DNA of 20,000 nucleotides from an uncultured virus (IMG/VR IMGVR_UViG_3300011693_000001) (taxonomy: Duplodnaviria > Heunggongvirae > Uroviricota > Caudoviricetes), in IMG/VR virus record IMGVR_UViG_3300011693_000001, positions 239,606 through 259,605 of that record. One strand, 5' to 3'. Of the stretch, positions 3,697 to 20,000 are shown one piece after another. The notes beneath the pieces were generated by a model. That model was not told the DNA's origin and searched no databases. It was given only the letters and a program-made list of their open reading frames with translations. The position numbers and the translations under genes were made by a program. The first letter of the stretch is position 1; every line of letters begins with the position of its first letter.

Positions 3697-6474
3697 CTAC
3701 AATTTATCTTTTGTCTTCTTGATGTAAGCATCTACTTCATCGAGTTGACGAAGAACACGATCAGCTGGGGCTTTTTGATCAGCTTTCAGCGATTTAATCG
3801 TCTTCTTAATTTCCTTTTGCTTAGCTAGAATATCATTAAGTTCTAGCTTGGCAAGTCGGCGAGCTTGTAGGTCAAGAATGGCCTTAACAAACTCAGCTGG
3901 TTTCTTCCACTTTTTCATCAGCATCTGATCGGGGTCTTTCTTCGACTTCAATGCTTGGAAAATGTCTTCCAGATGATCGACAGCGAATTGCAGCATTTCC
4001 TGATGCTGATACTTTTTCTCCTCATCAGCAATCAGTTTCTTCAACACCGCCGATTCAAGCTTTACTCGAAACTCACACCACTTCTCCAGCATACCAGCTA
4101 CGTTAACTTCTCCAAAGTCAGCACTGCCGTCCTTGTTACGTCGCGTATAACCGATGTTGAATTGCAGTGCGCCGGTTAGCTCCTTCTCGATTTTCGAGAT
4201 TAGCGGCTCCAGCAAATGATCATCTAGGTTTTTCTTAAAACTGATCGTGTATCGGATGTTGTAATTACCAACACCAGCTGCCGAGTCATCGTTGATTTCC
4301 TTGATGCCGGGCAGGTCACGTAGTTTGACCAGTTTTTTCTCAATCGTGTTTTGCGAACCAAAAGCAGGCGAGCACGATTCAATGTACAGCTCGCGGCGGT
4401 GACGATCAAAGCGCGTTTCGCAAACAAAACGGATGCTACCACGACCAGTCTTGTACACTTCGAGGATTTCATCGAAAGTGGAAACAATACGACCGCCGTA
4501 TTTCGAATTCACTTCCAAATTCTTTGCTAACCACTTGCTAGTGATTTTCTCACCTTGCAAACAACGCTTCACTGCTTTCAGTACACCTTTTAGCTTGAAG
4601 CTAGGCATACCTACAGCTACACCAAACGCAGGCGCCCGCACTGTACCGGTCAGAAGTATGACAGGTAACTTGGCGGGAAAGAAAAGAGGCCATTCGGCAT
4701 CGTTCGAAAAGTTTTTTACATACGGAACAACAGCAAGATATTTCGGATCGAGAATAAACTTGTCGCTGAATTCAGACAGGCGTGCTTCCGTATTATGAAC
4801 GATCATACCGTTGGCTGTGTACGAGTTAGAACCCGGAACAGTCAGATCGTAAGTGGCCTCATCACCGATATAACGAATCGAGCGAACTTCGGTGAGGAAG
4901 TAGTCACAATCAAGGATATGCCGCAACTTACCAACAAGGGAAGGAAAATGCTTTCCGACAAACTTACCGACCGAGCTTAGCCATTCACGCAGACTTTCCA
5001 GAGTGCATGGCATCGCACGGCCAGACAGACCACGTAGCATAGCCAGCTCGTAACGTGGGATAGCTTGATTGTGCTCATTCACTTCACTATCAAGAATCTC
5101 ACTATAGTGATCGCGCACTACTTGCGGCAACCATGAGAGCTTCTGGTTATCGTAAGCAGAGTTGAGTGCTCTTCCGCCTTTGCGTTCAGAAAGGAAACCA
5201 ATCTCTCTCTGAAACTTATCGTACATCGTCTTGCTGCACAGATACAGAGTATGTTTGCTCTGACGGAACGGCAGGCCGAATTTCGTCAGCAGCAACACCT
5301 GTAGCTGATCCAGCAATTTGTTGCTTCTGGAACTGTAGCTGATGCCGGAGTTATGCACGCTACCGTCACCTTCAAACAATGCGGACAGGAAAGCGACAAC
5401 TTCTTTCTTGGAACCACGCAGAACACAAGCCGGAATCTCTTTGTCCTTAGCGGTGCACGGATGAATGCCGTTAGCTTCCAAGAACTTACGCACATGAGTG
5501 GAGTTAATTGTGACTTGAGCGTATTTACGCTTAGCCCAATTCTTTTTATCAGGCTCACGCCACGTGGTAGATACCACAATTCCGGGAAACAGTTTTTCGG
5601 TAAGATCGGTGAAGAGATTCACCATAGCCTCGTCCGAATTCATAAACTGAATCGAAGCTGTGCCGATGCTACCTTCTGAAATAAGCAGACCGAGCCATGC
5701 AGCAAAGTCAGCGGACATACGCTTAGGCACGGGGTAAACTTTATAACCGTAGCGCAAAGAGGATTCGCTAGGTGCTTCCGGTTGAATCAGAACACTACCC
5801 TGCTTGGGCCAAGAAACACTCGGGTTACGCTTGTAGCAAACAACATCACCCTCTTCCAGAGTCTCGATGGTACGCCATACGAAAGCCAAATCAGAGGAGA
5901 GAACCAGCAAAGGCTCGTTACTTGTACCTTTAATGTGACCTATTGCAGTTTCGACGCGATAAATTTCACGAACACCACTGTCCAACCAGAATGCAGCCTC
6001 TTCGACACCGTTACGTGTTTCGACTTTCAGTTGAATAGGCAGTTTCTTTTTAGGTGACAGACCCAACACGCTAGGAATATCACCGATAGGAATCAAACCT
6101 TTCTCAGTGCTTACCAGTGTATCGCCTGTGAAACAATAACGCATCGCTGCTGCACTTGAATCATGGCGACCCCAGTTACCAAAACCATCTACTAGGTTAG
6201 GCAGTGAATTCGCAATAGTAACCATCGCATCGTAGCAGGCTTGGTCGCCATGCGGATGGTATTTACCGATAACATCACCGACCGTACGTGCAGCTTTTTT
6301 ATACGGATCGTTGTAATGCAAACCCAATTGGTACATCGACCAAAGAATTGCGCGGTGAACTGGTTTCAATCCATCGCGGTAATCTGGAATGGCGCGATTC
6401 TCTACAACGTGAGAACCGTATTCCAGCATTGCACCTTCAACAAACTCTTCGAGGTGCTGGTTATTCGTTCCCAT
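3697..6474 (-). CDS. gyrA: Type IIA topoisomerase subunit A (GyrA/ParC-like) precursor containing an intein; about 477 aa after splicing, no C-terminal pinwheel domain
   Basis: [37 protein letters not shown], and AAAMRY|TEARLS catalytic motif split by the intein. Confidence 0.93.
4792..6135 (-). mobile_element. Intein (448 aa) with LAGLIDADG homing endonuclease, inserted immediately after the active-site Tyr113
   Basis: Starts CFTGDTLV, ends [21 protein letters not shown] followed by Thr+1; LAGLIDADG-like blocks [10 protein letters not shown] and [12 protein letters not shown]. Confidence 0.95.
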
Positions 6475-6636: not shown

Positions 6637-8172
6637 TCAGTCCTCGGCGTCGTCATCATCGGCTTCGACGGATTTCTTTTTCGCTTTTGCTTTCTTCGCT
6701 TCCAATGCACGCTTTTCAGCAAGCATTGCAAGTTCGCCACCTTTCTTATTGCACTGATCTTCCAACCACAAACGAAGTGCTTTTGGCTTTACGCCCTTAT
6801 CAGCACACAGGTCTTTGATTTGCGATTTAGTGCCTTCGATGAGAACTTTGAATTCAAGCCAAGAAAACTTCTTGCCGGCATACGGAGTACCTTCGCCGAA
6901 AAGAATCTTGTCACGCTGACCAGAGATTTGTCCTGTTGCTCTCAAATAATTCCAAGCATCCCAAGTCATGCAGAAGCCGGTAGGCTCCCCATCAGCATCA
7001 CCGATACGAGTACGTAGAATTACTTCTTGCAGCGGACGACCACCGAGTTTGTTCTTGATGGTTTTGACTTTGATGTAGGCGTAGTAATCAACAGCACCTT
7101 CATCTTTGATCGACTGCTCTTCTTCGATATAACCTTTGCCGTGTGGGATAACGGTTTTGGCTGTACGCATACGAACGTCCGAGAAGAACTTGAGTGCGTT
7201 ACCACAAGGCTCGCGTTCAGTCGGACCATACATAACGCCAATGTTTTCACGAATCTGATTGATACCAACAATCACGATACGCTTCTTCTTCATCTTAGTC
7301 TTGATACGCGGAATCTGCTTCGAGAACATCCGCGCTTGCAGACCGAGCGAGTTATCACCATCTTCCTTATCGTCCATCGACTGCGGGTTCATCGCAGGAT
7401 AAGAATCGGTCAGGATGATTGCTTGCAGGCTACCATCTTCTGCTTCAACACGCAGCTTGTTATGCTTGGAGAAATACTTCTTGTCGTATTTCCCTTTCAG
7501 CATCGACTGGTTTTCTTTGGTGTTCTCGTAAACGTAGTACCACTTGCCTTTCATGTACAACTTGTCAGGCAGGATACGTTCGAGTTCCGCAACAGCCGAG
7601 AAGAACTGTTCACCAGTATCCGGCGACGAGTAGTAAACCAGAGGTTCGCTAACGTAGTTACCGTCTTCGTCTTTCTGACCGAACACGTCTTCCGCACTAA
7701 CTTTCACACGGGCATTTTTCAGGATAGCTTCGAAGTAATCGAACTGCACCGAACCTTCGTAGTCGAAGTACGAGCTATAACCTTTGAAGTTGTTGCGCAG
7801 GATACTCGCAACGATAGTCATCGCCAGTGTCGACTTACACGACTGTTCACCACCCAACGCGGTGTACCAACCACCAGCAACCAGACCGCCGCTAATAATC
7901 AAGTCGAGGGAGATTAGGCCAGTCGAGAATCGCGGCTCATCTTTCGACAACGCGCCACTAACAAGGTCGAACTTCTTTTCGATCTTATGCAAACGAGTGC
8001 GAGCAAAGCTAACCGGGTTAAAGAACTCAGGTTGCTCGATTGCTACTGCGCTACCAGAATCTTCGTTATCCTCTGCGCCTTTTTTGCGACGGGTCTTAGG
8101 GGCAGATTCTTTTTTCGGAGAAGCACGCTTACCACGCTTCTTTTCTGACTCAGCTTTCGCAGCCTTCGCCAT
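6637..8172 (-). CDS. recA: RecA/UvsX-like recombinase, 511 aa, with Lys-rich termini
   Basis: FSTGLISLDLIISGGL, Walker A-like GGEQSCKST, Walker B ILTDS, GLQARMFS, INQIRENIGVMYG, GNALKFFSDVR, KNKL. Confidence 0.92.
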   Translation of the reverse strand: MAKAAKAESEKKRGKRASPKKESAPKTRRKKGAEDNEDSGSAVAIEQPEFFNPVSFARTRLHKIEKKFDLVSGALSKDEPRFSTGLISLDLIISGGLVAGGWYTALGGEQSCKSTLAMTIVASILRNNFKGYSSYFDYEGSVQFDYFEAILKNARVKVSAEDVFGQKDEDGNYVSEPLVYYSSPDTGEQFFSAVAELERILPDKLYMKGKWYYVYENTKENQSMLKGKYDKKYFSKHNKLRVEAEDGSLQAIILTDSYPAMNPQSMDDKEDGDNSLGLQARMFSKQIPRIKTKMKKKRIVIVGINQIRENIGVMYGPTEREPCGNALKFFSDVRMRTAKTVIPHGKGYIEEEQSIKDEGAVDYYAYIKVKTIKNKLGGRPLQEVILRTRIGDADGEPTGFCMTWDAWNYLRATGQISGQRDKILFGEGTPYAGKKFSWLEFKVLIEGTKSQIKDLCADKGVKPKALRLWLEDQCNKKGGELAMLAEKRALEAKKAKAKKKSVEADDDDAED

Positions 8173-8189
8173 GTTATAAACCTCACTAG

Positions 8190-8219
8190 AATGAAGAAGA
8201 GGGAGGCTAGTGCCTCCCT
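8190..8219 (-). terminator. Probable intrinsic terminator between ssb and recA
   Basis: Stem AGGGAGGC/GCCTCCCT with 4-nt loop, followed by CTTCTTCATT on the minus strand. Confidence 0.6.
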
Positions 8220-8245
8220 ACTGCTTAGAAAAACTCACAGCTCAC

Positions 8246-9358
8246 TTAGAACGGTACGTCTTTCTTTTTCTTCTTTTTCTTGCCACTATCCTTAGACTTC
8301 TTAGAAGACTTAGCTTCCTTGTCCTTAGAAGATTTCTTTTTCTTCTTTGGAGCTTCGTCTTCGTCGTCGTCATCCTCGTCGTCATCGTCATCATCCGACT
8401 TGGACTTCTTAGAGGACTTCTTAGAGGACTTCTTTTTCTTCTTTGGAGCTTCGTCTTCGTCGTCGTCTTCGTCATCATCGTCGTCGTCATCCTCGTCTTC
8501 ATCACGGGACTTCTTCGACTTCTTCTTGTCGCCTTTCTTTTTCTTACCTTTGCCAAGCGCGTAGCTGTCTTCGTCGTCTTCGTCGTCGTCAGTTTCATCA
8601 CCGCCGACGTATTCGTTACGCTTGAAGTCTTCGGCTGCTTCTTTTTCAGACAGAAGGCCAGTCAGTGTCAGCAGTTCCGGCGAGAGATTGTAAGTCAGAT
8701 ACTCTTTCTCTTCATCAGTAATCGGAGTACGATCACCTTTATCAACACTGTACTTATCTGTACCCGAAGCTTTCGGCTTGTAACGCAGCATTACATCACA
8801 GCCGTACTTCGGATGGTCGAGGTCGTAGTTGGCAGTTTTGCCAGTCTTCTTGTTTTTAGCTTTGTTCAGGTCTTTGAGTTCCTGAATACGGCTGGCTACA
8901 GAAGATGGGATACGGACAACCTTAACAGGAGTCCATGTTTTGCTATTCGGGTCTTTGAAGCCAGTCTTTGTTTCAGACTTAGTTGGATCAGACTTCTTAG
9001 CCGGCTCGTTCTCTTGTTCTTCCCGATCAATCGCATTCATCAGGTAGAAGAATTCGTAACTAGCTGTAGCGTTAGAGTCACCGCCACCGTGAGAAAGATC
9101 ACAGTAAGGGCAGTGTACATCATGCGGCTCTTCTTCGTTCAGCGGGTTATGCTTGAGGCAATAGCGCGGAACCTTGATGATCTTCTTTTCTTTGCCAGCG
9201 TAGATTTTAATCCAGTGACGCTTGATGGAAAGAATCTGATCGCCAATGAGGCGGAAAGGAGTAATCTCGTCCGGTGCGAATTCCAGCAGCTTGACTACTT
9301 CTTCCAGCCGCATGTTATCCTTACGGCCTGTTTTTGGTTTTGCTTTACCGATGGCCAT
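8246..9358 (-). CDS. Single-stranded DNA-binding protein, T4 gp32-like, with long acidic/basic tail ending DVPF
   Basis: RHW...YC...CPYC (putative Zn site), FYLMNAIDR, YDLDHPKYGCDVMLRY; lies next to recA; C-terminal DVPF resembles the bacterial SSB tip DIPF. Confidence 0.75.
   Translation of the reverse strand: MAIGKAKPKTGRKDNMRLEEVVKLLEFAPDEITPFRLIGDQILSIKRHWIKIYAGKEKKIIKVPRYCLKHNPLNEEEPHDVHCPYCDLSHGGGDSNATASYEFFYLMNAIDREEQENEPAKKSDPTKSETKTGFKDPNSKTWTPVKVVRIPSSVASRIQELKDLNKAKNKKTGKTANYDLDHPKYGCDVMLRYKPKASGTDKYSVDKGDRTPITDEEKEYLTYNLSPELLTLTGLLSEKEAAEDFKRNEYVGGDETDDDEDDEDSYALGKGKKKKGDKKKSKKSRDEDEDDDDDDDEDDDEDEAPKKKKKSSKKSSKKSKSDDDDDDEDDDDEDEAPKKKKKSSKDKEAKSSKKSKDSGKKKKKKKDVPF
8324..8491 (-). 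repeat. Imperfect 96-bp-period duplication encoding (D/E)n-EAPKKKKKSSK twice
   Basis: ctttggagcttcgtcttcgtcgtcgtc occurs at about 8345 and about 8441. Confidence 0.85.
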
Positions 9359-10538
9359 TGGTATCTCCGATTAGATGGCGTGTATCTCTATTTACAGATA
9401 GTGCAGCGTAGGCGCGCCGCGTCACTTTGTTCACCTGCCGCACACAAAACCGACGATCACGTTTAAGTTCAACGCGCTTCGGTGTTGCATAAATGGCGGT
9501 TGGTGCTGGATTGCTTTTCAGTAAATGGCCAAACTCACTGCGCATCTGCTGATCCATCTTCTCGATTTCCTGCACAGAGAAATATTCTCCAATATCGAGA
9601 AGCAAGCGTGCCGTTCCACGCTGATCCACTGACTTGATTAGATAACGAATGATATCATCCGTTTCGTCACGTTCAATGTTTTCGGCAATCCGTTCTTCGC
9701 TACTGACGGAACTATGAAGATTGCGTTCGCCTTCTTCATCGTCATTAGCCATACCGTCGAGGCTCACACTGAAGTTCACTTCGCCGCTTGATCCAGTAGC
9801 GAGTTTCTTCCGCTGTGTTTGCGGAATAGTGTACGCGATGCCATACTCATGCTCATCCGTACCGCAAGTCAGAGCATTGAGCACCCACCAGTTGATGTAT
9901 GAGGTAAGTGGGCCTCGATCACTGTCATATTTATCGATGGCGATCAGAACAGACTTGAGAATATTCTGACGAACATCCATGAAGTCGTAGTTCATAGACG
10001 GGTTGCTTTCAATGTAAGAAGCAGCCTGTTTACTCGCCATCTTGACGTAATGATCGACTACTGTAGTTCGATAGTTATAGAAGTTGCGTAAGTACCCATC
10101 GACCAACGACATGATGCGATATAAATCTTCGCGTGATGCGCAGCCGGCCTGACGAGCCATGTAGTCTAGTTGTTCGCGTAGCACTTCTCGGGATTTAGCG
10201 TTTACCATGTACTCACGGTATAACGACATGAACTCACGATTATGCGATTGGAACCTAGACAGGAACGTGTGGATAAATGAACGTTCAATCCGAGCGGAGC
10301 GGACGATTTCAAATTTCTCACGTCGATCCGTAGCTACCAAATACGAAGCTAACAACTCAATAACTGTTTCGCGTTCGATGGAGCTAATCTTACGCTTTCT
10401 GTTTCCTGTTGTTAGGTTAAGCAGATAGCTGACCTGTGTATCGAACACAGTGCTATGAACCACGACAGGTTCCAGCGCCTTGTACAAAAACAGGTCAAGA
10501 ATTATCTGAATCTGCTCGCCCGTCAGATTGTCGTACAT
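9345..10538 (-). CDS. Phage sigma70-family (RpoD-like regions 2-3) transcription factor, 397 aa
   Basis: DVRQNILKSVLIAIDKYDSDRGPLTSYINWWVLNAL matches regions 2.2-2.4; YTIP and VSLDGMANDDEEGERNL match region 3/3.2; no obvious region 4 HTH. Confidence 0.8.
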   Translation of the reverse strand: MYDNLTGEQIQIILDLFLYKALEPVVVHSTVFDTQVSYLLNLTTGNRKRKISSIERETVIELLASYLVATDRREKFEIVRSARIERSFIHTFLSRFQSHNREFMSLYREYMVNAKSREVLREQLDYMARQAGCASREDLYRIMSLVDGYLRNFYNYRTTVVDHYVKMASKQAASYIESNPSMNYDFMDVRQNILKSVLIAIDKYDSDRGPLTSYINWWVLNALTCGTDEHEYGIAYTIPQTQRKKLATGSSGEVNFSVSLDGMANDDEEGERNLHSSVSSEERIAENIERDETDDIIRYLIKSVDQRGTARLLLDIGEYFSVQEIEKMDQQMRSEFGHLLKSNPAPTAIYATPKRVELKRDRRFCVRQVNKVTRRAYAALSVNRDTRHLIGDTNGHR

Positions 10539-13266: not shown

Positions 13267-13719
13267 TTATAGCGGCTGTTTGCCGGCGTTACCCGCTGCT
13301 TCTTTTATAGCTGCAACGGCAGCGCGTTCTCTCTCATCCAGCTCAGCGATACGATCCTCACCTACATCGGAATTTTCAGATTCAGGCTCAGGGAACATAT
13401 AATGACTGTGCGGATACTTAGCGCGACCTTCTGACCAATCCAATACCTGCTGATACAGGCCAGCTGCAAACAACAGTACGCTTTTTGGAACCTGTTGAAG
13501 CATACGTAGTTGCATCATGTTGGAATCAAGAATATCGTATTCGATTTCCCCATTAGACAGATCAGGATACAGGACTACGAAATAAGAGGCAGCGTCTACA
13601 GATGGAAATGGATGAATTGCGTATAGAGCAGATTTTAAATCCTGCTCCATAGCTTTTAATTTCATGTAGTCTTGTTCGTACTCGGCGAAACTAACGCCTT
13701 CTGTTTGAAATTCTGACAT
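13267..13719 (-). CDS. Hypothetical protein, 150 aa
   Basis: ORF in operon orientation; GGAAGAG upstream of the ATG. Confidence 0.75.
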   Translation of the reverse strand: MSEFQTEGVSFAEYEQDYMKLKAMEQDLKSALYAIHPFPSVDAASYFVVLYPDLSNGEIEYDILDSNMMQLRMLQQVPKSVLLFAAGLYQQVLDWSEGRAKYPHSHYMFPEPESENSDVGEDRIAELDERERAAVAAIKEAAGNAGKQPL

Positions 13720-14402
13720 TGTAACTCTTCCAGTTGAGGGAACTCTATCGCGTTCACATCGAGAGTAGGATACCCTACGCTTTTTACGATTCCACTGTCT
13801 GCCAGCACGTTTACTTTGCTCTTAGAGATAAAGTCTATACGCTTGCTAGCGTCGCCGCGAGATAACACGGAAAACTCAGCCATCAGCTGATGGACTGCTT
13901 CGATGACGTGTACCCGATACGGGCTATTACGTGACTCGTTAATTATTTCAGCGGAAGGTGAACCGTATAAGGCAATAGAGGTATGTGCTCGAAGAACGAT
14001 ATCGTAAGCGTTTTCGATAGGTTGAATCTTTTGGAATTCAAGCGGAGAAGGCTGACTGCCAAGACCCGTAATTTTTCCCAACTTATCTATCAGATATTCG
14101 ATGAAGGAAAGCTCATGCAGAGCTGCGGTGTAGCATGGCTGCGCAATTTCCATACGAGCATCTTGCTCTTCAACGTCACATAGGGAGCGCATCTTCTGTG
14201 ACGTTGATTCTTTCTCATCACCTAAGATTCGTCTAGCGGCCAGCACTTTGGCTTCGCTTCGTTTAGCTTCAGCTAAGGATGATTTAATGGCGAAGCTGCG
14301 ATCTTGCTTCAGTTCATGTAGAACACGAAGGGCTTCTACGCCTGTATGGCAATTGCCAACAATGTGATAGAAAATCTGAAAATCAGAATTCTTCCAGTTC
14401 AT
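13662..14402 (-). CDS. Hypothetical helical protein, 246 aa
   Basis: ATG 14402 (MNWKNSDFQIF) with GGGG SD, directly after a terminator; 58-nt overlap with the next gene. Confidence 0.75.
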   Translation of the reverse strand: MNWKNSDFQIFYHIVGNCHTGVEALRVLHELKQDRSFAIKSSLAEAKRSEAKVLAARRILGDEKESTSQKMRSLCDVEEQDARMEIAQPCYTAALHELSFIEYLIDKLGKITGLGSQPSPLEFQKIQPIENAYDIVLRAHTSIALYGSPSAEIINESRNSPYRVHVIEAVHQLMAEFSVLSRGDASKRIDFISKSKVNVLADSGIVKSVGYPTLDVNAIEFPQLEELQCQNFKQKALVSPSTNKTT

Positions 14403-14414
14403 CGCTAACCCCAT

Positions 14415-14449
14415 AAACAAAAAGGGCCGATGATGTTACTCACCGGCCC
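14415..14449 (-). terminator. Intrinsic terminator after the H1-like gene
   Basis: GGGCCGGTGA-GTAACA-TCATCGGCCC followed by TTTTTGTTT. Confidence 0.85.
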
Positions 14450-14469
14450 GTTGTACGGCGAAGAATGAC

Positions 14470-15027
14470 TTACAGGTCGAACTCGTCGTATTCTTTTTCG
14501 GCCTTAGCCGACTTCTTGGCCTTAGCTGGTTTAACTGCTTTTTCCTTCTTGCCACCTTTCTTTTCGGCTTTGGCTTTCTTAGCTGGTTTTTCAGCTTTGG
14601 CCTTCTTGCCCTTCACCGGCTTTTCAGCTACGGCTTCTTCTTCTTTGGCGGCTTTCTTGGACTTCGCAGGCTTTTCAGCTTTGGCTGGCTTTTCAGCTTT
14701 GGCAGCCTTCTTACCTTTGGCCGGCTTTTCAGCTTCAGCTTTGGCAGCAGCCTTCTTACCTTTGGCCGGCTTTTCAGCTTTGGCCGGCTTTTCAGCTTTG
14801 GTAGCTTTAGCAGTTTTAGCAGCACCCTTAGCTGCTTTCGGAGCCTTAGCAGTAGGAGCGGCTTCACCTTGCAAGGTGGCGATTTCTTTACGCGAAGATT
14901 CCAGCAGTGCGGATACTTTCGAAGTCTGAGCGGTCAGAGCTTTGAACATGGATTCCAGAGCGCGGCTTTGTTTGGTCAGAACCGAGACGGCGCGCGAGCG
15001 GTTAATCATTGCAACTTCTTTAGCCAT
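14470..15027 (-). CDS. Histone H1-like/AlgP-like Lys-Ala-Pro-rich protein with N-terminal coiled coil, 185 aa
   Basis: ATG 15027 with GAGG SD; repeated KAEKPA units; acidic C-terminal tip EYDEFDL. Confidence 0.85.
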   Translation of the reverse strand: MAKEVAMINRSRAVSVLTKQSRALESMFKALTAQTSKVSALLESSRKEIATLQGEAAPTAKAPKAAKGAAKTAKATKAEKPAKAEKPAKGKKAAAKAEAEKPAKGKKAAKAEKPAKAEKPAKSKKAAKEEEAVAEKPVKGKKAKAEKPAKKAKAEKKGGKKEKAVKPAKAKKSAKAEKEYDEFDL

Positions 15028-15060
15028 GATGGCTTTCCTCAAATTCTTTTTGAATTGAAA

Positions 15061-15083
15061 GAAGGGGACAGTATGCCCCCTTC
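15061..15083 (-). promoter_or_regulatory. 10-bp hairpin in the leader of the H1-like gene (5' stabiliser, attenuator or terminator)
   Basis: GAAGGGGGCA-TAC-TGTCCCCTTC followed by TTTC. Confidence 0.6.
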
Positions 15084-15114
15084 CTTTATTTACGTCGAAA
15101 CGGACAACGAGTCT

Positions 15115-15143
15115 AAATTAGCACTATCAAAACACTGTGTCAA
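15115..15143 (-). promoter_or_regulatory. Sigma70-type promoter for the H1-like gene
   Basis: TTGACA (15143-15138), 17-nt spacer ending TGC, TAATTT (15120-15115); the -35 lies in the perfect palindrome TGTCAATTGACA (15138-15149). Confidence 0.75.
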
Positions 15144-15182
15144 TTGACAGGTTGTTACGGTAACGATTTAACGGCGGGACGA

Positions 15183-15680
<498 letters not shown>

Positions 15681-15737
15681 CGCGGAACATCCTCATTATA
15701 GCAGTTAATGAAACGCAAACTTCTTTGCGTTCTAATC

Positions 15738-15747
15738 TTTACAGTTT
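15738..15747 (-). promoter_or_regulatory. AAACTGTAAA motif copy upstream of the diblock gene
   Basis: Exact 10-mer, intergenic, about 58 nt before ATG 15680. Confidence 0.6.
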
Positions 15748-15752
15748 TACAA

Positions 15753-15785
15753 TGACGCTACTCGAATCCTTATGAAGTAGCGTCA
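15753..15785 (-). terminator. Hairpin downstream of the acidic protein gene (possible terminator)
   Basis: Perfect 10-bp inverted repeat TGACGCTACT/AGTAGCGTCA with 13-nt loop; poor U-tract. Confidence 0.5.
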
Positions 15786-15807
15786 CGTTGATTAAGAGTG
15801 GGTTGAA

Positions 15808-16377
15808 TCAGCCGAAGGAATCTTCGTCATCTTCTTCGTCGAGGTCTTCATCTTCCTCTTCTTCGTCCTCGTCTTCTTCCTCTTCATCCTCGTCTTCGTC
15901 GAGTTCTTCCTCGTCGTCTTCGTCGAGTTCTTCCTCGTCGTCTTCGTCTTCGTCGTCTTCGTCTTCGTCGTCGTCTTCGTCTTCGTCTTCGTCTTCGTCG
16001 TCGTCTTCGTCTTCGTCTTCGTCGTCGTCGTCTTCGTCGAGTTCTTCGTCGTCCTCGTCATCACCCTCATCAGAGTCTTCGAACTCTACGTCGTCCATTG
16101 CTTCTTCTGGAAGCACGTTCGCAACCGAGTCGATAAAATCTTCGAAGGTGTAACCGTTTTCATCCAATGTACGCAGCATAGCGGACATTGCATTAACGGA
16201 ATGCTGAGAGAGCATTTGATCCTGCTCACTGACTTCGTTTTCTTCGAAGTGCTCGCTCGCGTCGGACTCAATAGCGTCGGCCAACTGGCCCAACGAAAGC
16301 TCTTCACCGTACTGTTCCCGTGAATAGGTCAGAAGGGCAAGCAGAGCCATGTTGGTAAAGTCGAAAGCGTTAGCCAT
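15808..16377 (-). CDS. Extremely acidic protein, 189 aa: helical N-domain plus about 85-residue D/E tail
   Basis: ATG with GGAG SD; direct translation. Confidence 0.85.
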   Translation of the reverse strand: MANAFDFTNMALLALLTYSREQYGEELSLGQLADAIESDASEHFEENEVSEQDQMLSQHSVNAMSAMLRTLDENGYTFEDFIDSVANVLPEEAMDDVEFEDSDEGDDEDDEELDEDDDDEDEDEDDDEDEDEDEDDDEDEDDEDEDDEEELDEDDEEELDEDEDEEEEDEDEEEEDEDLDEEDDEDSFG

Positions 16378-16431
16378 TTGTGTTACTCCAATTTATCAAG
16401 GAGATAGGGGGTGGTGTCGATGCTTGATGTA

Positions 16432-16441
16432 TTTACAGTTT
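16432..16441 (-). promoter_or_regulatory. AAACTGTAAA motif copy upstream of the acidic protein gene
   Basis: Exact 10-mer, intergenic, about 55 nt before ATG 16377. Confidence 0.6.
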
Positions 16442-16453
16442 GGAAAGAAGAAC

Positions 16454-16891
16454 TTATTCTTCTTCGGCAACGAATTCGATATTGATGCCCTTGTTATCCG
16501 GCAGGAAGATCACACCATCGGAAACGGTTTTAACAGTAGCACCATCAGCGCCGAAAGAAACGGCACCTTTGAATTGCAGAGGACGAACAACCGAACGGCG
16601 GGCGGTACGCAGAACTACGGTGCCTACTTCGCCATTCTCGGAAGGCATGGCAACAATTTCACGCATCGGGAAACGAGTGCGCATCATTTTCGAAGAAGCG
16701 CGACGCTTGTGTTGCAGAACAACGCCAGCGGCATCACGGGAAACTACGGTAGCGTCCAGTTTAACGACTTGCGGAACGTACACTTCGATGCTGTACGATT
16801 GGGAAACCTTCGAAGACGATTTAGCCTTTTTGGCTTTGGTAGCGCCTTTGCCGGCAACTTTGACTTTCTTTTTCTCAGTGACTTTGGCCAT
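16454..16891 (-). CDS. Basic protein, 145 aa, Lys-rich N-tail plus beta-rich domain
   Basis: ATG 16891 (MAKVTEKKKV) with AGGT SD. Confidence 0.8.
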   Translation of the reverse strand: MAKVTEKKKVKVAGKGATKAKKAKSSSKVSQSYSIEVYVPQVVKLDATVVSRDAAGVVLQHKRRASSKMMRTRFPMREIVAMPSENGEVGTVVLRTARRSVVRPLQFKGAVSFGADGATVKTVSDGVIFLPDNKGINIEFVAEEE

Positions 16892-16927
16892 TTTGATGCA
16901 CCTAAACAATTCAGTGTTGGGTTATTA

Positions 16928-16955
16928 AAGGGTAGAAGGTTTTCCCTCTACCCTT
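16928..16955 (-). promoter_or_regulatory. 12-bp hairpin (terminator of the upstream gene or 5' leader hairpin)
   Basis: AAGGGTAGAGGG-AAAA-CCTTCTACCCTT. Confidence 0.6.
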
Positions 16956-16956
16956 C

Positions 16957-16966
16957 TTTACAGTTT
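16957..16966 (-). promoter_or_regulatory. AAACTGTAAA motif copy upstream of the basic protein gene
   Basis: Exact 10-mer, intergenic, 4 nt after the stop at 16971. Confidence 0.6.
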
Positions 16967-16970
16967 GCGG

Positions 16971-18263
16971 TTATTCTTCCGCTTCACCGGACTCATCGGA
17001 ATCAGCTTTAACAGTGAATACAGCATACCCGCGATCAAATCGTACCGAACTACCTTCAGCGATCAAGCCTTGGAAAATATTCAGCAGATCAGGAGTAACG
17101 TCATCTTGGATCAGAATGTTTACCTGAACCGAAGAGACGGCGGTAGCTTCTTTCAGACGTGCTACCAGAGTGTTAACGACCTTGAGGTTATTCAAGAGCA
17201 TTCGCATTTCATCTTTATTCTTACGGGCAGCAGCTACGATAGCTGGGACCGCAAAATGCAGATCGATAGAGCGAATAGCAGTAAGCGCAGTACCACCCCA
17301 AGCGCCTTCGCTTTGTTCGAAGCGAGTAGCTACAGTAACAACTGCGCCGGATTCTTCATCGAATGGTTGATTCAAGCGGGACTCTACACCGCGCGCTTGT
17401 TCGTAAACATAATTCTCTGCGATGCTACTCGGAACAGCAACACCGAAGCGAATGGAATCGCCTTCCATAGAAACACCTTCGACGAAGGCATCCAGTGCAG
17501 CACGTACAGCGCCGGTTGCATCTTTCTCTTGACCTTTACCACGACGCAGCGGCTGATGCGTGGTCAAAAAGGTGCCATTCTTTTCGTAAATGGAACCTTC
17601 ACGACTGTCGAGGTAGATGCTGATGTTAATCTCATGCTTGTAGTTGAGATTTTCGATGCTAACCGTTTCAGGGACTTCATCTTCATCGACGAAATCCTCA
17701 TCGGAAGCGGGATGAATATGCAGTTCCGATTCGCCGTCATCGGACAGCTCGGCGATATCTTCTTCATCATCCATCGAATCATCGCTTTCGAGTTCTTCGA
17801 TTGGGGCTTCTTCGATGTTTTCATCGAATTCATCGTAATCAGGTTGTTCGGTAGTAGCACTCAGCACTTCGTTATCCTCTTCTTCATCAATCGATTCAAG
17901 GAAAGAATCGTCCATATCAGCATTGCCTGTATTGTTTACAGTTTGCTGATGTACAGATACAGCCAACGGGCTAGCAGAAGAGGCAGGCGAAGTCGGCAGA
18001 TTGAGATTCGTAGCTTTCTGCTCAGAATGGCGGAAAGAATCAGTGGTCATGTTCGTCGGCATCTTGGTTGTTGCGAGAACAACAGGGGTGTACTTGGAAA
18101 CAGGGCGACCGAGACGCTGCATATCAGCGTTATATTCCGACAACGCACGATTGTACAACTCGGGATGATCCCGGCGAGCGCTGGTAATGACATTCTGTGC
18201 CATCATGGTAGAAGAATTTGCCAGCGCGTTTTTCAGAGTGGATACTACGGATTCTGTGTTCAT
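16971..18263 (-). CDS. Hypothetical protein, 430 aa, with S/T-rich linker, acidic middle and folded C-terminal part
   Basis: ATG with AAGGAG SD; long ORF. Confidence 0.85.
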   Translation of the reverse strand: MNTESVVSTLKNALANSSTMMAQNVITSARRDHPELYNRALSEYNADMQRLGRPVSKYTPVVLATTKMPTNMTTDSFRHSEQKATNLNLPTSPASSASPLAVSVHQQTVNNTGNADMDDSFLESIDEEEDNEVLSATTEQPDYDEFDENIEEAPIEELESDDSMDDEEDIAELSDDGESELHIHPASDEDFVDEDEVPETVSIENLNYKHEINISIYLDSREGSIYEKNGTFLTTHQPLRRGKGQEKDATGAVRAALDAFVEGVSMEGDSIRFGVAVPSSIAENYVYEQARGVESRLNQPFDEESGAVVTVATRFEQSEGAWGGTALTAIRSIDLHFAVPAIVAAARKNKDEMRMLLNNLKVVNTLVARLKEATAVSSVQVNILIQDDVTPDLLNIFQGLIAEGSSVRFDRGYAVFTVKADSDESGEAEE

Positions 18264-18269
18264 GTGGTG

Positions 18270-19559
18270 TTACTCCTTTACACGATATACGATTCGACTA
18301 TCGGCGTTTGTTCGCTCGTCGTCGAGTTGAAGAACTTCGAGGCCGACTACCTTGTAAGGGATAGCCTCTTTATAGCGCTCGAAAACTTTTCGGTGATGTT
18401 TTCGGAACGTCGAAGCATCGTTGATCATTGGGATGCCAGTTAAATCGACGCTACGTGTTGTTACAGGGATGAAACCGAGAGAGTGCATACGAATTGCTCG
18501 GTGACTCAATTCCGTCAGGTGCAGAATCTCACCCTTAGAGTAACCGACCATATCGTACGCGACAAAATCAAGATATGTCTCAGGCTGCTTAGCTAACCAA
18601 GCTTCGCGCTGTTCTGCAAACGAATTCTTGGCTTCGATATACGCACGCTTTGCCGCCTTGTAATCACTCTTGCCTTTGCCAGATCGCTCAAACCGTTTCT
18701 TTGCCTTAACAGCAGCATCCCGCAACGGCTTGAGTTCATTCTCGTCAAACAACGCTTTGTCTCGAACGGGTGCAGCCAGATAAGCGTCCAACAAATTGCG
18801 AGCAGAACGCATATCAGGAAGGTTGCTCTTCAGTGCTGGGATTTTGTCCTTACGCACAGATAGCGTACCGTATACAAAAACGTATTTCCCTTGAATGCCG
18901 ACGTTACTGGAATGGCTAATGCGATCACCGTTCAACCATTCACCCAGCTTCATCGGCAGTACGCGGCTACCGAAATGCGAGAGCGCTGGAAGCATACGAT
19001 CTTCTTCCAACGTCCACATATCGTAAAGCATCCAATCAGCTGAGCCTTTCACCTTACGGTAACACGCAGCAACATGCACACCGCTAAGGAACGGCGATAC
19101 ACGAATGCTCGCACGTTTAGGTACAGTGATATCGTCGAACATCCCGAAGCCCAAAAACCGCTTGAACTTCTTCATAGCTTGGACATACGAATCGGGATAA
19201 ACGAAACCATCCTTAACAACGTTGATTGAATTAGCAATATCAGTTTTTAACCGTTTGCCAGCTTCCTCAAACGTTATGCTACCACCTTCCATGATCGAGA
19301 AGTGCGCCCAATCAGAGGCAGCTTGCTTGTTTTGTGGAACACCGATACCAAGATCGTACAGAGCGGAGACGACATACATCGCCTCCACATCACCAGCTTT
19401 TGAACGTCTATAAAGATCGATGATTTGGTTTTTGTCAATCCGCGCCATATATACACCCTTGTCGGTGTCAAGTTCCAGCGCGGAACCGTTTGGGTCAGCA
19501 ACCTGACTCAAGCACTTGGCTTGAATCAGGCGCTTTACAAGCTCAGGCTCGAACTTCAT
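18270..19559 (-). CDS. Sel1-like repeat fused to a degenerate NAD+-dependent DNA ligase adenylation-like domain, 429 aa
   Basis: GDVEAMYVVSALYDLGIGVPQNKQAASDW (Sel1). VSPFLSGVHVAACY, VFVYGTL, SARNLLDAYL, LDFVAYD, SLGFIPV, IPYKVVGLEV and RIVYR are colinear with LigA motifs. Confidence 0.6.
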   Translation of the reverse strand: MKFEPELVKRLIQAKCLSQVADPNGSALELDTDKGVYMARIDKNQIIDLYRRSKAGDVEAMYVVSALYDLGIGVPQNKQAASDWAHFSIMEGGSITFEEAGKRLKTDIANSINVVKDGFVYPDSYVQAMKKFKRFLGFGMFDDITVPKRASIRVSPFLSGVHVAACYRKVKGSADWMLYDMWTLEEDRMLPALSHFGSRVLPMKLGEWLNGDRISHSSNVGIQGKYVFVYGTLSVRKDKIPALKSNLPDMRSARNLLDAYLAAPVRDKALFDENELKPLRDAAVKAKKRFERSGKGKSDYKAAKRAYIEAKNSFAEQREAWLAKQPETYLDFVAYDMVGYSKGEILHLTELSHRAIRMHSLGFIPVTTRSVDLTGIPMINDASTFRKHHRKVFERYKEAIPYKVVGLEVLQLDDERTNADSRIVYRVKE

Positions 19560-19564
19560 TACGC

Positions 19565-20000
19565 TTATGCTTCCTCAAAGTGCTGAGCAAAGCTGTCCAG
19601 AGAAACAGTGATCAGTTTACCGCCACGCTTGGCCAGAACAATCTTAGCCTTGCTTACCAGCTTACTGTCGGAACCGATGAAGAAGTAAGGGTTATTCGTG
19701 CGAACGTCCTTAACTTTCGAACCGAGGCTAGCATTGGCATCGAAATCAGAGTCGAGGTAACGCTGGCCGTACTTTTCAGCGGCTTCTACACTAACGCCGG
19801 TGAGTTTGGCGATAGCTTCGAAATCCACGCTTTCCTCTTCCTCTTCGTCGTCTTCTCCGTCGAGGGATTCCAGCTCATCTTCATCTTCATCTTCGAAGTC
19901 GTCTTCGTCTTGCTCGGACTCTTCGTCGTCTTCCTCTTCTTCGTCGTCGAGTTCTTCGTCGTCGAGGTCTTCTTCCTCTTCGTCGTCTTCCTCTTCTTCG
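19565..20000 (-). CDS. Protein with long D/E tract followed by a small C-terminal domain; 5'-truncated by window edge
   Basis: The frame of the 87-aa track ORF stays open to the window end and encodes about 57 further, mostly D/E, residues. Confidence 0.85.
   Translation of the reverse strand, partial: EEEEDDEEEEDLDDEELDDEEEEDDEESEQDEDDFEDEDEDELESLDGEDDEEEEESVDFEAIAKLTGVSVEAAEKYGQRYLDSDFDANASLGSKVKDVRTNNPYFFIGSDSKLVSKAKIVLAKRGGKLITVSLDSFAQHFEEA

Follow-up and report, generated by a model that had tools for sequence, protein, structure and literature searches.

In the Pseudomonas proteins AlgP and PhaF a coiled coil is followed by a tail of KPAA/AAKP repeats, and Lys/Ala/Pro-rich tails are also present in chlamydial Hc1/Hc2 and at the C-terminus of histone H1. 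In bacterial SSB, a disordered linker joins an oligonucleotide/oligosaccharide-binding (OB) fold to an acidic tip whose last residue is hydrophobic, and condensates of SSB occur in E. coli. According to the available text of a recent report, "moraphages", i.e. uncultured large aquatic phages, contain histone H1-like genes (PF07432), and genome compaction was suggested as their role (PMC12619734). Here we analyse the last 20 kb of a 259,605-bp phage genome sequence (IMG/VR record IMGVR_UViG_3300011693_000001, positions 239,606 to 259,605). This stretch of 20,000 nt is called the window throughout, and it contains a module of seven genes (positions 14470-20000) that encodes strongly basic as well as strongly acidic proteins. 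We tentatively propose that these proteins are a set of polycations and polyanions that would act on phage DNA in the infected cell, during and after replication, and that they are not parts of the tail or of fibres; to this joint reading we give somewhat less than an even chance.

With AlgP/PhaF, Hc1/Hc2, and the H1 tail, the Lys-rich protein of the module shares a repetitive Lys/Ala/Pro-rich tail of the non-specific DNA-binding kind, and with AlgP/PhaF also a helical N-terminal part in front of that tail. It differs from H1 by the absence of a winged-helix globular domain, and from all of these proteins by a tail that is a mixed K/E polyampholyte with an acidic-aromatic tip and by reaching none of the family models. 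At the level of the genes alone, the module resembles the pairing of H1 with chaperones of the prothymosin-alpha/nucleoplasmin type, because a polycation is encoded together with disordered polyanions of comparable length. However, there is no homology to H1 and prothymosin-alpha, and the phage polyanions bear helical or beta handles as well as basic N-terminal segments and are fused to a beta domain in 14 of 75 representatives of the family described below. The moraphages are likewise large phages that encode a Lys-rich H1-like protein, but their proteins reach the Pfam model, and neither paired acidic proteins nor a conserved module are described in the available text (PMC12619734).

A module of seven genes for oppositely charged proteins

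All genes of the window are encoded on the minus strand. A sequence-only reading of the same DNA had described seven consecutive co-oriented open reading frames (ORFs) between 14470 and 20000, and all of them are present as described. The start codons of two were corrected, i.e. to 15027 for the Lys-rich gene and to 16891 for the beta-domain gene; in the former case the ATG was preferred over the listed TTG at 15042 because the relatives start with MAK. The genes are the following:

14470..15027, minus strand: Lys-rich protein, 185 aa from the ATG, KAEKPA-type repeats (translation, family alignment)
15183..15680, minus strand: basic-acidic diblock protein, 165 aa, net charge -53 (translation)
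15808..16377, minus strand: acidic protein, 189 aa, net charge -102, positional equivalent of PaBG gp125 and Lu11 gp164
16454..16891, minus strand: beta-domain protein, 145 aa from the ATG, with a Lys-rich N-terminal arm, equivalent of PaBG gp126, Lu11 gp163, and Y3 gp322
16971..18263, minus strand: 430-aa protein with an acidic middle (about residues 115-200) and a folded C-terminal part (translation)
18270..19559, minus strand: 429-aa protein, not charge-extreme, with one Sel1-like repeat, equivalent of PaBG gp128 and Lu11 gp161
19565..20000, continuing at the genome start, minus strand: C-terminal 144 aa of a 495-aa protein, equivalent of PaBG gp131 and Lu11 gp157

The products thus listed include two polycations, i.e. 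a Lys-rich tail protein anchored by a coiled coil and a two-barrel beta domain with basic arms, two to three polyanions consisting of a helical or beta handle and 70-140 D/E residues, and two folded partners. A gene was classified as charge-extreme, by a criterion set post hoc, when a window of 30 residues contained at least 17 D/E or at least 13 K/R. This applies to 18 of the 318 crudely called genes of the genome and to five of the seven genes of the module (hypergeometric P for at least five of seven 6e-6, and 2e-3 after multiplication by 312 positions). The charged tracts are encoded by tandem DNA repeats with periods of 6-33.

The Lys-rich protein contains 54 K+R and 23 D+E residues. A region of ~55 aa at the N-terminus, predicted to form a coiled coil, is followed by a disordered tail rich in K, A, E, and P and by the C-terminal tip EYDEFDL; in the family alignment, the N-terminus MAKNDVTIN..RLRK and the tip [DE][YF][DE][DE]F[DE] are conserved. 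The tail is a mixed K/E polyampholyte with a fraction of charged residues (FCR) of 0.49 and a net charge per residue of +0.21. The protein matches phrog_38087 (E 2.6e-13), a family of unknown function.

The 165-aa protein consists of KKAPA repeats, a short helix, and then 73 uninterrupted D/E residues, and its charge segregation is extreme (kappa 0.77 vs 0.21 +/- 0.03 in shuffles). In the relatives, which have a single poly-D/E gene, the helical handle of the product aligns with this helix. In the 189-aa protein, a helical N-terminal part is followed by ~90 residues of acidic tail, and the tip is DSFG. Together with their relatives the two form a poly-D/E family, in which a short basic segment at the N-terminus and a small helical handle precede 70-110 D/E residues; a DFD tip is frequent. 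In the PaBG record, gp125 is said to resemble a eukaryotic small-subunit assembly factor, probably on account of its composition only. A predicted complex between the N-terminus of the Lys-rich protein and the helical part of the 189-aa protein scored 0.02 against a mark of 0.32, which is uninformative either way.

The 430-aa protein is the positional equivalent of PaBG gp127 and Lu11 gp162. Five relatives were found that are 40-100% identical to it; no Pfam family and no significant BLASTP match to PaBG gp127 were obtained, and an ESM Atlas search with its C-terminal part yielded nothing usable. The 429-aa protein matches phrog_35683 (E 7e-30) and, in tblastn, PaBG (3e-22). In the ESM Atlas only Sel1-repeat clusters were retrieved for it (~0.90, with a predicted local distance difference test score, pLDDT, of 0.42 for the query model). 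With this single sequence as query none of the relatives' loci were found, and seven were found with an alignment of four sequences. The 495-aa protein (net charge -91) has small beta repeats with basic linkers in its N-terminal part, an acidic tract of ~140 residues, and a C-terminal domain.

Conservation of the module in related jumbo phages

Sequence comparison places the window phage among the jumbo phages of the PaBG/Lu11/Y3 group. Its sigma factor is 46-48% identical to those of the Pseudomonas phages PaBG, Lu11, and HRDY3 and more distant (~41%) from those of Erwinia and Dickeya phages such as Y3. The PaBG authors have given the name "Lupandier group", as stated in the available text of their paper (PMC7412058). 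At the nucleotide level, a megablast search with positions 14000-20000 of the window against phage records gave no match.

The sequence-only reading had named synteny and conserved charge patterns in related jumbo phages as a check on its proposal, and both were found, in Pseudomonas as well as in Erwinia phages. The gene order, i.e. big acidic, 429-aa, 430-aa, beta, poly-D/E, Lys-rich, and gp123-like, is identical in PaBG, Lu11, and HRDY3, and the respective sets (PaBG gp123-gp131, Lu11 gp157-gp166, and that of HRDY3) adjoin the same block of sigma factor, SSB, and UvsX genes. Besides PaBG, six IMG/VR loci also have this order. In Y3 the set (gp315-gp324) has a different genome position, next to the topoisomerase II genes and far from the sigma factor, SSB, and UvsX genes.

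The net charges of the window phage, PaBG, Lu11, HRDY3, and Y3 are, in this order, +31, +31, +25, +23, and +30 for the Lys-rich protein, +15, +14, +17, +15, and +15 for the beta protein, and -53 and -102, -93, -99, -107, and -90 for the poly-D/E protein, of which the window phage has two paralogous gene copies and the relatives a single one. The composition of the acidic tract varies: D and E are mixed in the window phage and PaBG, HRDY3 and two IMG/VR relatives have nearly pure E, and in others D occurs with S. Charge and architecture are thus kept, and the repeat sequences are not.

For Y3, similarity at the sequence level was found for two of the proteins. The beta domain is matched between Y3 and the Pseudomonas phages by BLASTP (4e-7 and 5e-10) and with a profile (E 9e-20), and the N-terminus of the Lys-rich protein is matched to Y3 gp324 by hhalign with 96.7% probability over 47 columns. 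The comparison of the 429-aa family with Y3 gp319 was not significant (hhalign, 3% probability).

Two additional charged proteins were observed in the relatives. At the place of the 430-aa gene, Y3 encodes gp320 (locus L054, 5089-8106), a protein of 1005 aa with a net charge of -190. A few genes upstream of the module, PaBG has an additional protein with a coiled coil and AKP/KPAA repeats, gp136 (locus L001, 25647-26072). The IMG/VR loci L007, L008, and L012 encode proteins of this type as well; gp136 and these proteins have 141-176 aa, and none was seen at this place in the window phage.

Promoter motifs and a terminator-like hairpin

Four genes of the module had been credited with an intergenic promoter-like signal of their own and a clear Shine-Dalgarno motif. 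These assignments hold, with the difference that the signals are phage-specific motifs and not the sigma-70 consensus: a generic sigma-70 scan of the window gave three sites vs 4.1 expected, none of them on the coding strand. The putative signals of the module are the following:

15738..15746, minus strand: AACTGTAAA promoter motif, 58 nt before the 165-aa gene
16432..16440, minus strand: AACTGTAAA promoter motif before the 189-aa gene
16957..16965, minus strand: AACTGTAAA promoter motif before the beta-domain gene, with a hairpin after the motif
15113..15123, minus strand: TGCTAATTTAG, -10-like motif of the Lys-rich gene, with TTGACA 17 nt upstream (15138-15143)
14424..14449, minus strand: intrinsic-terminator-like hairpin, ten pairs and then a T run, just after the Lys-rich gene

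The motif AACTGTAAA occurs six times in the window, always on the minus strand, vs 0.23 copies expected, and none of 200 shuffles reached six. It is located 55-66 nt upstream of three genes of the module, i.e. those for the 165-aa, 189-aa, and beta-domain proteins, and it matches CTGTAAAT sites that are annotated as 'putative middle/late promoter' in the Lu11 record. The 9-mer is present in 27 copies in the genome, and for 18 of them an ORF of at least 90 aa lies within 200 nt. Of these ORFs, the 13 that are located outside the window were scanned, and seven belong to DNA or nucleotide metabolism (a Cas4-like exonuclease, primase, DNA polymerase, clamp, HNH endonuclease, nucleoside triphosphate pyrophosphohydrolase, and the beta subunit of ribonucleotide reductase, RNR-beta); the remaining six are a baseplate fragment, in which the motif is intragenic, and five genes without known function. 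The looser motif CTGTAAA also precedes the genes for the topoisomerase II large subunit and a RuvC-like resolvase. It is found in tandem before the poly-D/E gene in Lu11, HRDY3, and Y3 and before the beta gene in Y3, and PaBG has a one-base variant. The sixth copy of AACTGTAAA in the window (17935-17943, minus strand) lies within the 430-aa gene, ~20 nt before an in-frame ATG; an internal start behind it would yield a product of 314 aa that starts at the acidic stretch.

The Lys-rich gene differs from these three genes. An 11-mer identical to TGCTAATTTAG precedes one tail-sheath gene of this genome, and a terminator-like hairpin of its own lies behind the Lys-rich gene. Among the relatives, only PaBG has a similar motif, TAATTC, which deviates from the core by one base; no such motif is seen in Lu11, HRDY3, or Y3. 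Genome-wide there are 22 [GC]TAATTTA 8-mers, 12 of which lie within 121 upstream regions that were collected. Fourteen genes behind a TAATTT motif were scanned: two encode tail sheath proteins, one a tail assembly chaperone, and one a weakly virion-like protein, and the other ten comprise a 590-aa acidic protein upstream of the capsid gene, two HNH endonucleases, and seven proteins without known function. Three of the TAATTT-motif genes head the gene run leading into the capsid gene. The kinds of downstream genes suggest that AACTGTAAA marks a replication-time class and TAATTTA a virion-time class.

Histone models and the Lys-rich protein

The sequence-only reading had called the Lys-rich protein H1-like. 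This fits its composition, i.e. 51 K, 49 A, and 10 P in the 190-aa version and a Lys/Ala/Pro-rich disordered tail; by composition alone the label holds, and as a family assignment it fails. A Pfam scan of the seven proteins (E<=0.01) revealed no winged-helix domain of linker histones H1/H5 (Linker_histone), no Pfam match of any kind for the Lys-rich protein, and no Hc1 (PF07432) match in the cassette. The Hc2 model (PF07382) gave 16.5 bits vs a gathering cut-off of 40, solely on the KKAPA part of the 165-aa protein, and the Burkholderia H1-like model hist_H1_lk_Burk (NCBIfam NF038053) gave 17.2 bits vs a curated cut-off of 80, again with the 165-aa protein only. None of the linker-histone, Hc1, Hc2, or Burkholderia H1-like models was reached, and "H1-like" is a statement on composition and on a probable mode of action rather than on family membership. 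More generally, no cassette protein reached a sequence family of Pfam, NCBIfam, or the PDB.

The tip EYDEFDL of the Lys-rich protein was also considered as a copy of the C-terminal docking peptide of the phage RNR-beta, which ends with FDEFDL. As a general feature this was rejected because PaBG, Lu11, HRDY3, and one IMG/VR relative keep this type of tip and a search of these four records gave no match to the RNR-beta of the window phage. The likeness of the two tips in the window phage (RNR-beta, genome coordinates C1:174414-175532; Lys-rich protein, window 14470-14490) is probably due to chance or specific for this phage.

The beta-domain family

A tblastn search with the beta protein against phage records gave no match, and the relatives were found later with a profile. 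The profile search retrieved 75 representatives at E<=1e-3, 31 of them at E<=1e-10, and by these profile matches the beta domain defines a new, as yet unnamed family. Sixty of the 75 representatives have a basic N-terminal arm. A K/R-rich tail was observed in 39, a poly-D/E tail in 14, and both features in five. In 39, the tip is acidic and includes a hydrophobic residue within the last four positions; the beta protein of the window ends with VAEEE and lacks a terminal hydrophobic residue. The 14 fusions suggest that the beta domain is functionally tied to the poly-D/E tract, which is encoded by a separate neighbouring gene in the window phage.

AlphaFold2 predicted an all-beta structure from 47 sequences, with a mean pLDDT of 80 and values above 90 over most of the beta domain; a model from six sequences (pLDDT 54.5) was not used. 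A Foldseek search of the model against the PDB gave no match at E<=0.001, the top rows being galectins with a template modelling score of ~0.2, and against BFVD it retrieved only uncharacterised proteins of PaBG and Erwinia phage Alexandra and two unnamed entries. With VIA-align 2, the best of 48,161 chains was the SSB domain 3koj_B (Z 5.5, root-mean-square deviation 2.4, 54 residues), which is below the level that the tool regards as meaningful. Residues 39-98 gave weak matches to OB folds of the SSB/PriB type (PriB, Rim1, and RPA, Z 4.2-4.9), and the rest of the model matched Hfq/Sm-like barrels with Z ~5, equal to the OB-fold scores. Ribosomal protein S17 was matched with Z 4.2-4.4; the tool notes that scores at such a level may reflect merely a common arrangement. 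A Pfam scan of 47 family members gave only scattered low-complexity matches, and the best E-value of a profile search against PDB sequences was 0.42.

In its build the family resembles bacterial SSB: the beta domain lies between a basic arm and a charged disordered tail, and in 39 of 75 cases there is an acidic tip with a hydrophobic end. It is unlike bacterial SSB in that the fold match has a Z of just 4.2-5.5, no solved chain is matched by sequence (best E 0.42), and the charge of the tails far exceeds that of SSB linkers.

Charged proteins elsewhere in the genome

Blocks of opposite charge also occur in two replication proteins encoded near the module. The SSB gene lies outside the cassette:

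8246..9358, minus strand: SSB with a 119-aa block-polyampholyte tail ending with DVPF (phrog_15004, E 1.6e-105)

Its tail alternates between D/E and K/S runs, with an FCR of 0.72, a net charge of about zero, and a kappa of 0.64 vs 0.11 +/- 0.04 in shuffles. Such a tail is present in all five SSBs examined (window phage, PaBG, Lu11, HRDY3, and Y3). The C-terminus of the UvsX-like recombinase (6637-8172, minus strand) has a Lys block and then an acidic block (...AKKAKAKKKSVEADDDDAED), and similar acidic tips are found in the relatives. On the strand opposite the SSB gene there is an ORF of 418 aa (window 8210-9466, plus strand), which exceeds the SSB ORF in length and could lead gene callers astray; it is an artefact of the repeats that encode the SSB tail.

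A second set of charged proteins is encoded around the major capsid gene (C1:107122-108216), in the region C1:102879-109782. It consists of proteins of 278 aa (net +63, KKPAA repeats), 208 aa (+37), 590 aa (-87, phrog_20988 'ATPase'), and 171 aa (-30), and the TAATTTA motif is located upstream of the 278-, 208-, and 590-aa genes. The gene for PaBG gp83 (net charge +36) occupies a place equivalent to that of the K-rich genes that precede the capsid gene, and gp83 is one of the virion bands in Table 1 of the PaBG paper (PMC7412058). The composition most similar to H1/AlgP in this genome is that of a 386-aa protein encoded at C1:36647-37807 (net +102, 86 K and 40 R), which has KKPAA and APAKRGRKPAA repeats and no PHROG family.

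Genome setting

The genome is rated 100% complete by the source collection, and terminal repeats are present. The ends of the sequence overlap by 59 nt, in frame, within a D/E-coding repeat of the 495-aa gene, which indicates that the sequence is circularly closed and that the break arose in the assembly. The true length of the repeat in this gene (window 19565-20000 and C1:1-1111) may be collapsed in the assembly. In three RNA-labelled public runs from one sample a relative is present, with ~17 differences in 2.4 kb and contigs at a depth of ~10; contigs from RNA libraries do not show transcription, and these three runs also hold contigs of 71-98 kb.

According to Pfam and PHROG scans, the window also encodes parts of topoisomerase II, the UvsX-like recombinase, SSB, and the sigma factor. 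The topoisomerase II subunit A-like gene (3697-6474, minus strand) contains an intein that bears a LAGLIDADG domain, and a free-standing HNH gene is located at 2175-2717. The conserved downstream neighbour of the module is the following:

13662..14402, minus strand: 246-aa helical protein, equivalent of PaBG gp123 and Lu11 gp166 (BLASTP)

The E-values are 1e-27 vs PaBG gp123 and 7e-21 vs Lu11 gp166, and tblastn revealed equivalents also in HRDY3 and in BcepSauron/BcepSaruman.

Proposed function and alternatives

The module adjoins the genes for the sigma factor, SSB, UvsX, and topoisomerase II in the window phage and those for topoisomerase II in Y3. Three of its genes have the promoter motif of replication genes, which fits an intracellular, DNA-linked role better than a role as fibre or decoration proteins. 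The sequence-only reading had proposed a system of phage chromatin or condensates made of a linker histone and acidic chaperones; synteny, conserved charge, and the replication-gene motif support this proposal in part, and membership in the H1 family had to be dropped from it. In the version that we tentatively favour, the polyanions, with their DNA-like charge density, and the basic-armed beta protein would occupy the zone of phage DNA during replication. SSB and UvsX, both with alternating acidic and basic blocks, would share that zone, which might thus become a charge-driven, coacervate-like replication zone. The polyanions could buffer the very basic proteins of the phage and keep these, and perhaps nucleoid proteins of the host as well, away from the DNA. 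The Lys-rich protein would coat or condense the DNA late in infection, before packaging. The acidic-aromatic C-terminal tips may be docking peptides, in analogy to those used by SSB tails.

Several points weigh against this proposal. The proteomics of PaBG, as given in the available text of the paper, comprised Coomassie-visible bands and tryptic MALDI (matrix-assisted laser desorption/ionization), which would presumably miss Lys-rich and D/E-only proteins. With the tail-sheath 11-mer before its gene, the Lys-rich protein may be produced alongside virion parts. Basic proteins do enter virions in this clade (gp83), and a second charged set lies by the capsid gene. The 'middle' and 'late' labels of the motifs are inferred from the kinds of downstream genes. 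The equivalence of the Y3 set rests on architecture and order, except for the beta domain and the N-terminus of the Lys-rich protein, and in its fold the beta domain resembles nucleic-acid-binding barrels only weakly (best Z 5.5).

The small, very basic and very acidic proteins of the module, presumably produced in quantity, resemble T4 internal and prohead-core proteins as well as PaBG gp83, and T4 internal proteins are packed with DNA. By this model, the polycations would be packed into the head to neutralise the charge of the DNA, and the polyanions would be scaffold-like escorts that are expelled or cleaved. This would agree with the tail-sheath-type TGCTAATTTAG of the Lys-rich gene and with the K-rich (+63, +37) and acidic (-87, -30) proteins that are encoded beside the capsid gene with the same motif, as well as with the virion protein gp83 (net +36) and the processing of the PaBG capsid protein, which implies that a prohead protease and a core exist (both from the available text of PMC7412058). 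However, none of gp124-gp131 is among the 14 identified PaBG virion bands in Table 1 of that paper, which is weak evidence against a place in the head (PMC7412058). Moreover, the module (C1:254075-259605, wrapping to ~C1:1111) is outside the head operon and next to replication genes in both arrangements, its acidic and beta genes carry the AACTGTAAA of replisome genes and not the tail-sheath motif, and the head operon already has a separate charged set. We regard head-internal proteins as a rather unlikely explanation. A role directed against the host appears similarly improbable. In that case the poly-D/E proteins would mimic DNA and thereby titrate nucleoid proteins of the host or defence enzymes that target DNA, and the host nucleoid would be the target of the polycations. 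Phages are known to encode acidic DNA-mimic proteins such as Ocr and Arn, 70-140 residues of near-pure D/E have a DNA-like charge density, the tandem promoter motifs suggest high expression, and conservation of charge without sequence is expected of a non-specific electrostatic decoy. Yet in the known DNA mimics the charges are arranged on a folded surface, in the phosphate pattern of B-DNA, to which a DNA-binding protein binds, unlike in the homopolymer-like tracts of the module, which are predicted to be disordered; the motif class is that of replication genes and not a recognisable early class, and the linkage to the beta domain (including the fusions), to the Lys-rich protein, and to two folded partners would be left unexplained.

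That the proteins have no function in common, and that their low-complexity tracts were merely expanded by replication slippage in a tolerant region, is a still less probable explanation. It would account for the tandem DNA repeats with periods of 6-33, for the drift of tract length and D/E choice among the relatives, and for the break of the assembly within one such tract, but not for order, architecture, and net charge that are kept between Pseudomonas and Erwinia phages with barely alignable folded parts, for charged tails that recur across 75 representatives of the beta family, or for dedicated promoter motifs. The least probable alternative, in our estimate, is an action of the basic-armed small beta barrels and the acidic proteins on RNA or translation. 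It could be derived from the weak structural matches to Hfq/Sm barrels (Z ~5) and ribosomal protein S17 (Z 4.2-4.4) and from the likening of gp125 to a eukaryotic small-subunit assembly factor in the PaBG record, which probably concerns composition only. Every structural match is below the meaningful level of the tool, no RNA-binding family of Pfam or NCBIfam was reached, and neighbours and promoter motif class point to DNA transactions.

Full-text literature searches, within the text accessible to them, returned no description of the module, the beta-domain family, or the SSB tail. Term look-ups in the searched text of the PaBG paper found neither 'histone' nor 'acidic' and no mention of module genes (PMC7412058). 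In the searched text of a 2021 comparison of jumbo phages, 'histone', 'low-complexity', and 'acidic' are absent, module genes are unmentioned, and a passage on topoisomerases contains the single mention of PaBG and of Lu11 (PMC7824862). The searched text of a 2026 review lacks 'histone', 'condensate', 'acidic', 'phase separation', and 'PaBG', and names Lu11 only in its references (PMC13282480). The available text on the Dickeya phage is without proteomics (PMC6143709), and the examined stretches of the Y3 GenBank record have no structural-protein labels.

Implications

Even apart from its mechanism, the locus delimits a conserved module of seven genes, a new beta-domain family with 75 representatives and a build like that of SSB, and a clade-wide block-polyampholyte tail of SSB. 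A more specific idea, which goes beyond the action on DNA proposed above and which we consider unlikely at present, is that the jumbo phages of the PaBG/Lu11/Y3 group build a membraneless coacervate compartment for replication and packaging, with the polyanions and polycations of the module as its scaffold. Replisome proteins would be recruited via the block-polyampholyte tails of SSB and UvsX, and the acidic-aromatic tips would be docking peptides. The shell protein gp54 of phiKZ and PhuZ have no match in the genome at E<=1, which, from single-sequence searches, is weak evidence of absence. If the idea is true, the problem for which phiKZ has its phage nucleus would have a second solution in this compartment, one of a different physical kind. 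If DNA is indeed organised by charge alone, the module would offer a compact model, in a bacterial virus, of the polycation/polyanion chemistry of H1 and acidic chaperones, and it would provide a way to ask how large phages without a shell hold their replicating DNA together and protect it.

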